From assembly GCF_057098645.1 (NCBI RefSeq), contig NZ_CM169472.1: a DNA stretch of 64,000 nt; one strand, written 5' to 3'. Positions 3,001-6,000 of the stretch are shown here, piece after piece. The position numbers were made by a program. Each line of letters opens with the position of its first letter. Position 1 is the stretch's first letter.

Positions 3001-6000
3001 TGATTTCTGAATGAAAGGAACTGATTTATGGGATTGTTTACGACCCGCCAGTTACTCGGTTATACCGAACAAAAAGTGAAATTTCGTGCGCTGTTTCTGG
3101 AGCTGTTTTTCCGCCGTACGGTGAATTTCCATACCGAAGAGGTGATGCTGGACAAAATTACCGGAAAAACGCCGGTGGCGGCCTATGTCTCCCCGGTTGT
3201 TGAAGGAAAAGTGCTGCGTCATCGCGGTGGTGAAACCCGCGTGTTACGTCCGGGCTACGTCAAGCCGAAACACGAATTTAATTACCAGCAGGCGGTTGAG
3301 CGTCTTCCCGGTGAAGATCCGGCTCAACTGAACGACCCGGCCTACCGTCGTCTGCGTATCATCACCGATAACCTCAAACAGGAAGAGCATGCCATTGTCC
3401 AGGTGGAAGAAATGCAGGCGGTGAATGCCGTGCTGTATGGCAAATACACCATGGAAGGGGATCAGTTTGATACTGTCGAGGTGGATTTTGGACGCTCTGA
3501 AGGAAATAACATTGAGCAGGCCGACGGTAAAAAATGGTCTGAGCAGGACCGTGATACGTTTGATCCGACGCATGATATTGACCTCTACTGCGATCAGGCC
3601 AGCGGTCTTGTGAATATTGCCATTATGGACGGTACTGTCTGGCGTCTGCTGAATGGTTTTAAGCTGTTCCGCGAAAAACTGGATACCCGTCGCGGCTCAA
3701 ATTCACAACTCGAAACGGCAGTGAAAGACCTGGGGGCGGTGGTGTCTTTCAAAGGGTATTACGGCGATCTGGCCATTGTGGTGGCGAAAACGTCTTATGT
3801 GGCAGAGGACGGTACCGAAAAACGTTATCTGCCGGAGGGCACGCTGGTCCTGGGAAATACGGCTGCAGATGGGATCCGTTGTTACGGTGCCATTCAGGAT
3901 GCGCAGGCGTTGTCCGAAGGTGTGGTGGCTTCTTCCCGTTACCCGAAACACTGGCTGACCGTGGGCGATCCGGCCCGTGAATTTACCATGACGCAGTCCG
4001 CACCGCTGATGGTGCTGCCGGACCCGGATGAGTTTGTGGTGGTGCAGGTGAAATAATCCGTGAGCGGGGGCGAAATGCCCCCGTGTCTTTTTTCACAGGG
4101 GGCTGATATGGCAACAAAAGAAGAAAATCAGAAACGTCTTCGTCAACTGGCTGGCCTGCTGGGGCGCGAGGCGGATATGTCGGGGAGTGCTGCGGATATT
4201 GCGCAACGTGTGTCTGAGTGGGAAGAGGAGCTTGCTGCTTCCCGGGAGGGCATTATGCCTGGTGATGAGAGCGGGCCTGAGCAAAATCACACAGACGATG
4301 GTGAGCAGTTGCACAACACTGATGCTACGGATGATGTTAAAGCGGTCCGTGTGCGGAAATGCCTGCATGTGATGGGGTATTGCCCGGAGACAGGCCGTCC
4401 CGTTGAACTGACGTACCGGGGCATGCGTGTTCTGGTGCCATCACCACTGGCGACAGCCATGATACAGCACGGAACGGCTGAGCATGCGTGATTTTCAGAA
4501 TGCCTTTGATGCTGCCCTTGCCGGGGTGGACAGCACGATTGTTGAAGTGATGGGGCTCTGTGCGCAGTTCACCTCGGGGGCACAGTGTGGCAGCGAAGTT
4601 CAGGGGGTTTTTGACGATCAGCCGTTTGACCGGCAGATTGTTATTCCGGCGGTGGCATTCAGTGGCGCTAAGCATGAGAGAGAGCATACTGATATTTACT
4701 CCTCATGCCGTCTGATAGTGCGGAAAAACGGTGCTGAAATTTATAACCGTACCGCGCTGGATAATACGCTGATTTACAGTGGCGTTATTGATATGCCTGC
4801 CGGTCACGGTCACATGACGCTGGAGTTTTCGGTATCAGCATGGCTGGTGAATAACTGGTATCCCACAGCAAGTATCAGCGATTTGCTGGTTGTGGTGATG
4901 AAGAAAGCCACCGCAGGCATCAGTATCAGCTGAATTTTATAACCCATATACGGGCGCCAGAAATGGCGCCTTTTTTATTGCAGAAAAGCGAGAGGTAATT
5001 ATGCGTAAACTTTATGCCGCCATTTTGTCCGCAGCCATTTGTCTGGCCGTATCCGGTGCGCCTGCATGGGCGTCTGAACATCAGTCCACGCTGAGCGCGG
5101 GGTATCTTCATGTCTCGACGAACGTTCCTGGCAGCGATGAACTGAACGGGATTAACGTGAAATACCGTTATGAGTTTACGGACACTCTGGGAATGGTGAC
5201 GTCATTCAGCTATGCAGGAGACAAGAATCGCCAGCTGACCCGTTACAGCGATACCCGCTGGCATGAAGATTCCGTGCGTAACCGCTGGTTCAGCGTGATG
5301 GCGGGGCCGTCTGTGCGCGTGAATGAATTGTTCAGCGCGTATGCGATGGCGGGTGTGTCTTACAGCCGTGTGTCGACTTTCTCCGGAGATTATCTGCAGG
5401 TGACCGACAACAAGGGGAAAACGCATGATGTGCTGACCGGAAGTGATGACGGTCGCCACAGCAACACGTCTCTGGCGTGGGGAGCTGGCGTGCAGTTTAA
5501 CCCGACCGAATCCGTGGCCATTGATATTGCTTATGAAGGCTCCGGCAGTGGCGACTGGCGCACTGACGGTTTCATCGTGGGTGTCGGTTATAAGTTCTGA
5601 TTAGCCAGGTAACACAGTGTTATGACAGCCCGCCGGTTCAGGCGGGCTTTTTTGTGGGGTGAATATGGCAGTAAAGATTTCAGGTGTACTGAAAGACGGC
5701 ACAGGAAAACCGGTAGAGAACTGCACCATTCAACTGAAAGCCAGACGGACCAGCAGCACGGTGGTGGTGAACACGGTGGCCTCTGAAAATCCGGATGAAG
5801 CCGGTCGTTACAGCATGGACGTTGAGTACGGTCAGTACAGCGTCATTCTGTTGGTGGAGGGCTTCCCGCCGTCACATGCCGGGACCATCACCGTGTATGA
5901 AGATTCTCAACCCGGTACGCTGAATGATTTTCTCGGTGCCATGTCGGAGGATGACGTCCGGCCGGAGGCACTGCGCCGTTTTGAACTGATGGTGGAAGAG

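Follow-up and report, generated by a model that had tools for sequence, protein, structure and literature searches.

A conserved terminator-type hairpin between the major capsid and FI genes of a phage 21-type prophage, and its counterparts in the gpE capsid family

Why should a hairpin with the features of an intrinsic terminator lie directly downstream of the major capsid gene, in the middle of a late operon? We addressed this question in a stretch of 64,000 nucleotides (assembly GCF_057098645.1, contig NZ_CM169472.1), hereafter referred to as the window. An earlier note on this DNA had described a GGGGGC/GCCCCC stem followed by a T-run at 4061-4094, between a gpE-like stop codon and an FI-like start codon, and had suggested that it might attenuate transcription of the late genes beyond it. 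Our analysis of the sequence confirmed both the stem and the T-run at this place.

Structure and genomic setting of the hairpin

The core stem pairs 4064-4071 with 4077-4084 through seven G-C pairs and one G·U pair (G4064·U4084, C4065-G4083, G4066-C4082 through G4070-C4078, and C4071-G4077), and closes a 5-nt loop, GAAAU (4072-4076). ViennaRNA added A4063-U4086 and G4062-C4087 at the base of this core, leaving G4085 as a bulge. When these two extra pairs form, the T6 run abuts the stem without a gap; with the GC core alone folded, 3-4 nt (UGUC) lie between the core and U6, a tract shorter than the canonical 7-9 nt. The folding energy of the 39-nt hairpin segment was -17.7 kcal/mol, compared with -10.2 ± 2.4 for shuffled sequences (z = -3.13), and only one of 200 shuffles folded as well. 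The stem can also form on the opposite strand, but the U-tract is absent there. For intrinsic terminators, we took a stem of about 5-14 bp and a loop of 3-8 nt as the stem-loop criterion. The element combines such a GC-rich stem-loop with a U-tract on the sense strand only, an intergenic position co-oriented with the genes, and a structure under selection. Together with the analogues across the capsid family and the annotation in phage N15 described below, these features bear out the terminator-like identity first proposed for it.

Table 1. Coordinates of the hairpin and neighboring features in the window
Feature	Position	Strand	Basis
Companion terminator-like hairpin, decoration (D/shp-like) gene and capsid gene junction	2978..2999	+	Terminator scan, strict-site count
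Major capsid gene (gpE family, 342 aa)	3028..4056	+	Pfam Phage_cap_E E = 6e-67; stop TAA 4054-4056
Capsid-FI RNA stem-loop	4062..4087	+	Core stem, loop and two basal pairs (sequence, ViennaRNA)
T6 run (U-tract)	4088..4093	+	Directly 3' of the extended stem
FI Shine-Dalgarno AGGGGG (4097-4102) and ATG (4108-4110)	4097..4110	+	Sequence; homologous annotation in phage 21
DNA-packaging protein FI gene (127 aa)	4108..4491	+	Pfam Packaging_FI E = 1.5e-14; RefSeq annotation of closest genome

The capsid protein shares 99.7% identity with that of PhiR12_1 and about 62% with lambda E. The gap from the capsid stop codon to the FI start codon spans 51 nt and contains the hairpin, which starts 5 nt past the capsid TAA; the element as a whole ends 14 nt before the FI ATG. 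In the phage 21 record, a ribosome-binding site and the start of ORF1 are annotated at the position homologous to this FI start. An N-terminal extension of FI from the in-frame GTG 4060 or ATG 4075 was rejected: indels of ±1 nt in 4057-4107 in 8 of 54 haplotypes would break the frame, and this segment is therefore non-coding.

The hairpin resides in a defective, tail-less prophage of the lambda/phage 21 type that has lost FII through J. The window begins within the portal gene, so that neither Q nor pR' is seen in it. The annotated genome closest to this region, 98.9% identical over a 3.5-kb query, has its Q gene some 11 kb upstream of the terminase genes, and three IS elements interrupt the late region between them. 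The copy in this window is probably retained passively in a decaying, tail-less prophage.

Conservation in the phage 21 lineage

A consensus scan for terminator-like sites ranked the hairpin first. Strict sites, defined by a stem of 7 or more pairs, 6 or more of them G-C, and by 5 or more T in 8 nt, numbered 8 on both strands of the window, compared with 1.45 ± 1.34 in 40 dinucleotide shuffles. Strong plus-strand sites followed one another at 2978, 4064, 4952 and 5627. No second copy of the hairpin sequence was found in the window, even at 3 mismatches, and in E. coli genomes the sequence was confined to this prophage junction, with a median of one place per genome; this single-copy, junction-restricted occurrence led us to reject a repeated palindrome of the REP/BIME type. 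None of the Rfam 15 covariance models gave a match overlapping 4057-4107 at E <= 1. An RNase III processing site, for which the double-stranded RNA should reach at least about 20 bp, was likewise rejected, as the stem comprises just 8-10 bp and conservation does not extend to the longer lower helix.

Phage 21 carries the hairpin with no sequence difference, and of 5,426 complete E. coli genomes, 1,543 contained it. Nucleotide diversity (pi) was 0.011 in the hairpin and 0.014 in the T6 run, compared with 0.136 at third codon positions of E and 0.110 for the spacer that precedes the ATG, so that the hairpin is about 10-fold less variable than adjacent synonymous sites. In a comparison of 80 close relatives, hardly any change was seen in the stem or in T6, and the Shine-Dalgarno region varied (GGGGG, GGAGG or GAGGC). 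The core helix remained 100% paired across 20 distinct variants, in which G·U changes and two double changes were observed; three core pairs varied to G·U only, and the L161 variant carried a compensatory change from G-C to A-U (G4068A with C4080T). These results demonstrate that the hairpin is under purifying and structure-preserving selection in the phage 21 lineage.

Hairpins downstream of capsid genes across the gpE family

We further surveyed the gpE capsid family using 81 distinct clusters of downstream sequence and two clade-level alignments, lambda-like and Chi-like. Hairpins of unrelated sequence occupied the same junction in lambda, N15, phi80, PhAER-5, Chi, Enc34 and others. Over the 81 clusters, the median folding energy of 36-nt segments reached -14.8 at 0 to +12 nt past the capsid stop codon, compared with about -7 elsewhere. 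A hairpin of -14 or better followed 83% of capsid stops and 23% of 461 stops of other genes in these modules (p = 2e-22), and the difference persisted when only gaps of at least 35 nt were considered (80% for capsid junctions and 24% for other junctions, p = 3e-14).

These stems are also accompanied by T-rich sequence on one side. The 10 nt 3' of the stems contained 4.6 T, whereas the expected number was 1.95 and the 5' side had 1.9 (p about 1e-12); in both clades, the enrichment was tied to the stem's 3' end, and it peaked immediately past the stem. Many members have poor U-tracts: of 53 Chi-like clusters, 12 had 5 or more T in 8 nt, as had 11 of the 19 lambda-like clusters. Almost everywhere in the gpE family, the capsid gene is accompanied at this one position by a terminator-type hairpin.

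The closest named counterparts are those of N15 and lambda. In N15 (NC_001901, 7053-7073), the hairpin after gene 8, at the equivalent junction, is annotated in GenBank as a 'putative rho-indep. transcription terminator', and the lambda E-FI hairpin (ATGGCCC-TTCG-GGGCCAT) is unannotated. N15, lambda and the phage 21-type prophage share the orientation, a GC stem-loop no more than about 10 nt away from the stop codon and a T-rich tail, although their primary sequences are unrelated; the phage 21-type stem is longer and richer in GC, and its U6 is better than the tract of lambda (UUGUUUCUCU) or N15 (CUUUCUGG). In the literature, we found no functional tests of the E-FI hairpin of any of these three, and nothing usable on mapped 3' ends or a step in coverage at lambda E/FI. 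Term-seq and dRNA-seq data have been published for EHEC Sakai (PMC7547250; dRNA-seq under GSE143631), where phage 21-type junctions are multi-copy.

All three also carry a partner hairpin upstream of the capsid gene. At the lambda D|E junction, it reads GCCGC-CTGT-GCGGC followed by T7, and the N15 record annotates a stem_loop at the equivalent junction. This upstream hairpin was present in about 58% of lambda-like clusters and is not family-wide. Hairpins bracketing the capsid cistron were rejected as a general rule, since the mean energy profile showed no dip upstream of the capsid start.

Possible roles in the late operon

The reading that we consider probable, though far from certain, is that the element is an intrinsic-terminator-type signal marking the 3' end of the capsid cistron, a leaky one that favors capsid mRNA and is mostly read through by Q-modified polymerase. 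When a polymerase that is not antiterminated, or is uncoupled from translation, crosses 4062-4093, the hairpin would form while still within the RNA exit channel, melting of the weak rU:dA hybrid would follow, and the transcript would end at or just past the U-tract. A Q-loaded polymerase coming from pR' would mostly pass. Whether a 3' end arose from partial termination or from later processing, the hairpin would block 3'->5' exonucleases. The net outcome would be a capsid message, together with that of the upstream decoration protein, that is more abundant and longer-lived than the messages of FI and later genes; the capsid is the protein required in the most copies. As a second effect, the hairpin would form a barrier to stray transcription into downstream genes in the lysogen.

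Several points weigh against this reading, among them the poor U-tracts of many family members. The stem starts within reach of a ribosome terminating at the capsid stop codon, which could suppress folding on coupled transcripts. Sampson et al., in 1988, reportedly put differences in lambda late-gene expression down mainly to translation initiation. The lambdoid late operon is transcribed by Q-modified polymerase, and the nozzles formed by Q21 and Q-lambda prevent terminator hairpins from forming (PMC9388147). Termination in lytic growth should therefore be weak and may be negligible. From sequence alone, the relative weights of termination, RNA stabilization and insulation are inseparable.

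Similar arrangements have been described in other systems. Phages P22 and L carry a predicted intrinsic terminator in a late operon antiterminated by Q/gp23, at the end of the capsid-assembly genes, although their capsid family and gene order differ; this terminator, after the procapsid gene module, is a prediction whose role is stated as unknown, and the same two candidate roles were proposed for it (PMC8022706). In phiX174, the terminators T_J, T_F, T_G and T_H are likewise intrinsic terminators for host polymerase after capsid genes, with T_F following the major capsid gene F, and these leaky terminators stop only 20-40% of transcription, with mRNA levels falling stepwise through the operon (bioRxiv 10.1101/2020.03.05.979765). 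However, phiX174 is a single-stranded DNA microvirus without antitermination, and efficiency was measured there, whereas the hairpin described here is known from sequence. The pLS20 plasmid's conjugation operon contains internal terminators that are passed only by polymerases modified at the start (conAn), and the combination of terminators and processive antitermination provides both insulation from spurious transcription and differential expression (PMC8955417). It differs in being a Gram-positive plasmid system, in having an RNA/protein antiterminator unrelated to Q, and in showing no tie to a particular gene class.

One alternative is that the hairpin is purely an insulator, stopping polymerases that failed to load Q at pR' (in the lysogen, spurious or read-in transcription) and leaving lytic stoichiometry unaffected. 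It follows the logic shown for pLS20, agrees with the Q nozzle, given which only unmodified polymerase would stop, and with the four strong plus-strand sites in series, and is one of the options offered for P22/L. However, a generic insulator has no need of a post-capsid site, yet strong hairpins concentrate at capsid stops, among real gaps as well, and the signal reaches the Chi-like/Casjensviridae clade, where Q-type antitermination was not established in this analysis. We therefore regard pure insulation as unlikely, though it deserves to be kept in mind.

A second alternative is that the hairpin only stabilizes RNA, protecting processed capsid mRNA against 3' exonucleases without terminating transcription. 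Antitermination should suppress termination, and the family keeps the hairpin far better than a canonical U-tract, both of which would suit such a role. An exonuclease block needs no U-tract, however, whereas T enrichment is, in both clades, fixed to where the stem ends, and T6 is conserved as well as the stem in the phage 21 lineage, making a stabilizer without termination improbable.

A third alternative is a translational device that controls FI by partly sequestering its Shine-Dalgarno sequence or by keeping ribosomes that come off the capsid gene from re-initiating. When the read-through RNA was folded, its minimum-free-energy structure joined 4057-4063 to 4093-4100 and so took in part of the Shine-Dalgarno sequence; the 3' arm GCCCCC is complementary to its GGGGGC, and the hairpin begins 5 nt past the stop codon of the gene that is translated most heavily. 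However, the lower helix (TCCGUGA / UCAC-A-GGG) was only 89% paired, with no compensation and with an uncompensated change from TCCGTGA to TCCGGGA, and it was rejected as a conserved feature. In 7 of 20 variants, among them the commonest one (GGAGG), the alternative helix between the 3' arm and GGGGGC had one disrupted pair, and an antiterminator-like switch was rejected on this ground. Comparable pairing with the Shine-Dalgarno sequence was also absent in other clades. These results bear on sequestration rather than on a block to re-initiation; to the translational reading as a whole we give very little credence.

Equally unlikely, in our view, is a terminator gated by its context, either dependent on Q or gated by translation. 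In the former version, the 3-4 nt before U6 would act as a spacer matched to the exit channel that the Q21 nozzle lengthens, and the hairpin would work only with that nozzle in place, as in the hypothesized 'Q-dependent' terminator composed of a hairpin, a spacer and a 7-9 nt U-tract (Yin et al. 2022). This version is disfavored because the 3-4 nt can pair into the stem and the U-tract measures 6 nt, not 7-9; in other lambda-like clusters, the homologous L161 variant included, the T-run lies right at the stem and the spacer is not conserved. In the latter version, as the stem begins 5 nt past the capsid stop codon, the terminator would fire only where the lead ribosome lags, which would couple the ratio of capsid to downstream mRNA to translation.

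That the hairpin has no function, being a palindrome arisen by chance, a repeated element or a stretch of FI coding sequence longer than annotated here, is hardly credible: the open reading frame 4060-4491 shares its frame with the FI ATG and loose terminator patterns are frequent (17 compared with 11.5 expected in 12 kb), but the excess of strict sites, the single-copy sequence without an Rfam match, the strong selection on sequence and structure, and the frame-breaking indels all argue against it.

For this window, the hairpin has little import; intergenic hairpins of this phage 21 type are common and had been sequenced before, and the prophage around this one is decaying. For annotation, the hairpin helps to place the true start of FI-like genes. 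The pattern across the family is what deserves attention, namely that terminator-type hairpins follow capsid genes despite the termination-resistant polymerase of lambdoid late operons. The pair of phage 21 and lambda, with natural compensatory variants, offers a simple system for studying the ratio of capsid to accessory mRNA, RNA stabilization and insulation.

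The hairpin and its prophage setting

Window 4054-4110 reads TAA TCCGT GAGCGGGGGC GAAAT GCCCCCGTGTC TTTTTT CACAGGGGGCTGAT ATG. The earlier note had placed a hairpin and T-run between the capsid and FI genes, and both its coordinates and its description proved accurate on sequence and folding. ViennaRNA adds two basal pairs to the core stem, and the T6 run therefore abuts the extended stem. The 39-nt hairpin segment folded at -17.7 kcal/mol, compared with -10.2 ± 2.4 kcal/mol in dinucleotide shuffles (z = -3.1), of which 1 of 200 was as good. The hairpin ranked first in a consensus terminator scan, in which the loose pattern was hardly enriched overall (17 observed, 11.5 expected). 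Strict terminator-like sites (at least seven pairs, at least six of them G-C, and at least five T in eight) numbered eight on the two strands of the 64-kb window versus 1.45 ± 1.3 in shuffles. Half of them cluster on the + strand inside 2.7 kb, every one immediately 3′ of an ORF; the strongest canonical predicted terminator of the window lies on the - strand at 43793-43814.

At the hairpin, the opposite strand can form the stem yet lacks a U-tract, an Rfam search gave no family match, and no second copy of the sequence occurs within the 64-kb window. At the D|E junction, where the site after the decoration gene lies, lambda has GCCGC-CTGT-GCGGC preceding T7, and N15 has an annotated stem_loop between the D-like and E-like genes. 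Several very stable 40-nt segments, among them those at ~63930, ~49603 and ~61023, which are stable on both strands, also emerged from an MFE scan.

Features of the hairpin region and strict terminator-like sites in the window
Feature	Position	Strand	Details
Capsid gene	3028-4056	+	342 aa; Pfam Phage_cap_E, E = 6e-67
FI gene	ATG 4108 to 4491	+	Packaging_FI, E = 1.5e-14
Core stem	4064-4071 / 4077-4084	+	seven G-C pairs and one G·U; loop GAAAU
Basal extension	A4063-U4086, G4062-C4087	+	G4085 bulged; ViennaRNA
T6 run	4088-4093	+	adjoins extended stem
Strict site	2978-2999	+	directly after decoration gene
Strict site	4064	+	directly after capsid gene
Strict site	4952-4971	+	directly after FII'-'J fusion
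Strict site	5627-5648	+	directly after lom
Strict site	23321-23352	+	terminator-like scan
Strict site	31685-31703	+	terminator-like scan
Strict site	43793-43814	-	GCCCGTCC-GCCA-CTGGACGGGC then T8
Strict site	45575-45592	-	terminator-like scan

An S49 protease/scaffold gene and a lambda-D-type decoration gene lie 5′ of the capsid gene. Up to window ~4619, the head genes match those of phage 21 and PhiR12-type phages at 92-96% identity; past that point, homology switches to Stx-type phages, namely to their J 3′ end, lom and tail-fibre genes. At this junction, the ORF at 4484-4933 fuses the first ~45 FII codons in frame to the C-terminal receptor-binding domain of J (Pfam Ig_GpJ_C, E = 1e-31); every tail gene from FII to J has therefore been deleted. 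No more than about 25 complete E. coli genomes, mainly O145, share the fusion junction. The best complete-genome matches are O145 strains, 98.9% identical over a 3.5-kb query, which carry the same deleted prophage followed by the effector genes nleH, cif and espJ. In E. coli O145 RM8988-C1 (838000-853500), the closest annotated genome, the prophage retains a Q antiterminator gene upstream of the equivalent of the window start, but ISEc20 and two IS3-family elements, all oppositely oriented, break up the late region on the stretch from Q to the terminase genes. The hairpin thus sits in a lambdoid prophage that is defective and, judging by these relatives, effector-carrying. In the same strain the lysozyme gene is split and, immediately 5′ of Q, there is an lpxR-like gene for a lipid A deacylase. 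At 10329-15326 of locus L020 from that genome, 3′ of the tail-fibre genes, nleH, cif, espJ and a frameshifted DUF1076 gene form an exchangeable effector locus.

Hairpins after gpE-family capsid genes

At the same junction, lambda has ATGGCCC-TTCG-GGGCCAT followed by TTGTTTCTCT, and N15 has GTGGCCC-ATTC-GGGCCAC, labelled in GenBank as a "putative rho-indep. transcription terminator". We compared 20 hand-picked loci from phages of Escherichia, Aeromonas, Salmonella (Chi), Hafnia, Xylella, Vibrio, Pseudomonas, Ruegeria, Rhodobacter, Proteus and Paenibacillus. A strong GC hairpin directly followed the capsid stop in all but three or four, the exceptions being loci with overlapping or tightly abutting downstream genes. 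In phi80 (NC_021190, 1627-1660), the hairpin GTGGCCC-TGTC-GGGCCAC is homologous to the annotated N15 terminator; the annotated FI start, a GTG 9 nt past the capsid stop, falls within its 5′ arm, and the real start probably lies further downstream.

For a family survey, capsid stops were placed by tblastn extension in 240 IMG/VR loci, and the 100 nt 3′ of them were grouped into 81 clusters by k-mer similarity rather than by phylogeny. The 36-nt folding-energy profile was flat at ~-7 kcal/mol outside the capsid-stop region and dipped sharply in windows starting 0 to +12 nt past the stop (mean -12.8, median -14.8 kcal/mol), with no comparable dip upstream of the capsid start. Hairpins of -14 kcal/mol or below followed 83% of capsid stops. 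For the stops of 461 other co-oriented ORFs in these loci, the fraction was 23% (Mann-Whitney p = 2e-22); these control ORFs were taken from the unannotated loci by a longest-ORF heuristic that over-extends 5′ ends. The median gap was 60 nt at capsid junctions versus 2 nt at others; among junctions with gaps of at least 35 nt, the fractions were 80% and 24% (p = 3e-14).

Hairpins occurred in 19/19 lambda-like clusters, 11 of which had at least five T in the 8-nt tail, and in 53/62 Chi-like clusters, where 12 of the 53 had such a tail. The 10 nt flanking the stems held on average 4.6 T at the 3′ side versus 1.9 at the 5′ side, with 1.95 predicted by base composition (p about 1e-12). T frequency was maximal 1-4 nt past the stem and decayed beyond, and the U-rich tail is therefore anchored to the hairpin in the fashion of an intrinsic terminator. 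The family's U-tails are usually sub-optimal, as would be expected of leaky sites, and the phage 21-type U6 ranks among the better ones.

Variation within the phage 21 lineage

The intergenic sequence of phage 21 (M81255) is identical to that of the window, and its record annotates only ribosome-binding sites in this gap. Of 5,426 complete E. coli genomes, 1,543 carry the capsid/FI junction with the hairpin. The 80 IMG/VR loci whose capsid proteins are 93-100% identical yielded at least 20 distinct intergenic variants. The terminator helix was paired in 100% of alignment cells across lineage variants; three stem pairs vary, to G·U only. One stem pair changes from G-C to A-U in L161 and L166 (CGGGAGC...GCTCCCG), and the diverged variant L099 has the stem rebuilt as GGGGGGC/GCCCCCC. 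Across 54 haplotypes, nucleotide diversity was 0.011 in the stem-loop and 0.014 in T6, versus 0.110 in the spacer from the T-run to the FI ATG; at capsid (E) codons it was 0.014-0.022 at positions 1-2 and 0.136 at third positions. Within the lineage, FI varies much more than E does (0.22-0.33 versus 0.014-0.14). Indels of ±1 nt in 8 of the 54 haplotypes mark the E-FI gap as non-coding, and the in-frame GTG 4060 and ATG 4075 were rejected as FI starts on the same indels.

L161 and L166, both IMG/VR contigs, carry a phage 21-type capsid gene and first hairpin part with the compensatory change, and their T-run, spacer and FI 5′ end differ from the phage 21 type (TTTTTCATTCAATCAGGAGCGGGTATGGCTA). 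This suggests recombinants with a mosaic boundary at the hairpin or immediately 3′ of it.

Possible roles of the hairpin

The earlier note had interpreted the hairpin as terminator-like and as possibly attenuating downstream late genes. This interpretation is partly borne out: folding, the U6 tract and conservation show, at the level of sequence, a terminator-type architecture under selection; any attenuation would be expected to be blunted by Q. Q21 and Q-lambda travel with RNA polymerase from pR′, and the Q nozzle on the RNA exit channel keeps terminator hairpins from forming (PMC9388147). We favour, as a reasonably probable reading, a leaky intrinsic terminator combined with a 3′-end hairpin. 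The U-tract would halt unmodified or uncoupled polymerases, and Q-loaded polymerases would mostly read past the hairpin. The 3′ ends made here, via termination or processing, would be shielded from exonucleases, which would give capsid (and decoration) mRNA an advantage over that of FI and the genes beyond it. Elsewhere, phiX174 terminators 3′ of capsid genes each block only 20-40% of transcription (bioRxiv 10.1101/2020.03.05.979765), and partial termination or halting of non-antiterminated transcription was suggested for predicted intra-operon terminators of P22/L (PMC8022706).

In the pLS20 operon, terminators paired with processive antitermination provide insulation against spurious transcription (PMC8955417). 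Insulation alone seems unlikely here: such hairpins are strongly tied to one position, behind the structural gene with the highest copy number, which points to a connection with capsid expression and not to a generic role. A role as RNA stabiliser alone is less likely again, since the excess of T anchored to the stem speaks for genuine termination. Also unlikely is a "Q-dependent" spacer terminator as proposed by Yin et al. (PMC9388147): the spacer of 3-4 nt is able to join the stem by pairing, and related hairpins, the homologous L161 variant among them, lack one. Control of FI translation is very improbable, the two candidate helices pairing with the FI Shine-Dalgarno sequence not being conserved, and a hairpin without function, or a coding one, is scarcely credible.

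The hairpin studied here is unannotated, and its equivalent is already annotated in N15 and discussed for P22/L. The added value of this analysis is modest: a quantitative demonstration that gpE-family capsid genes are followed near-universally, and with position specificity, by a terminator-type hairpin.
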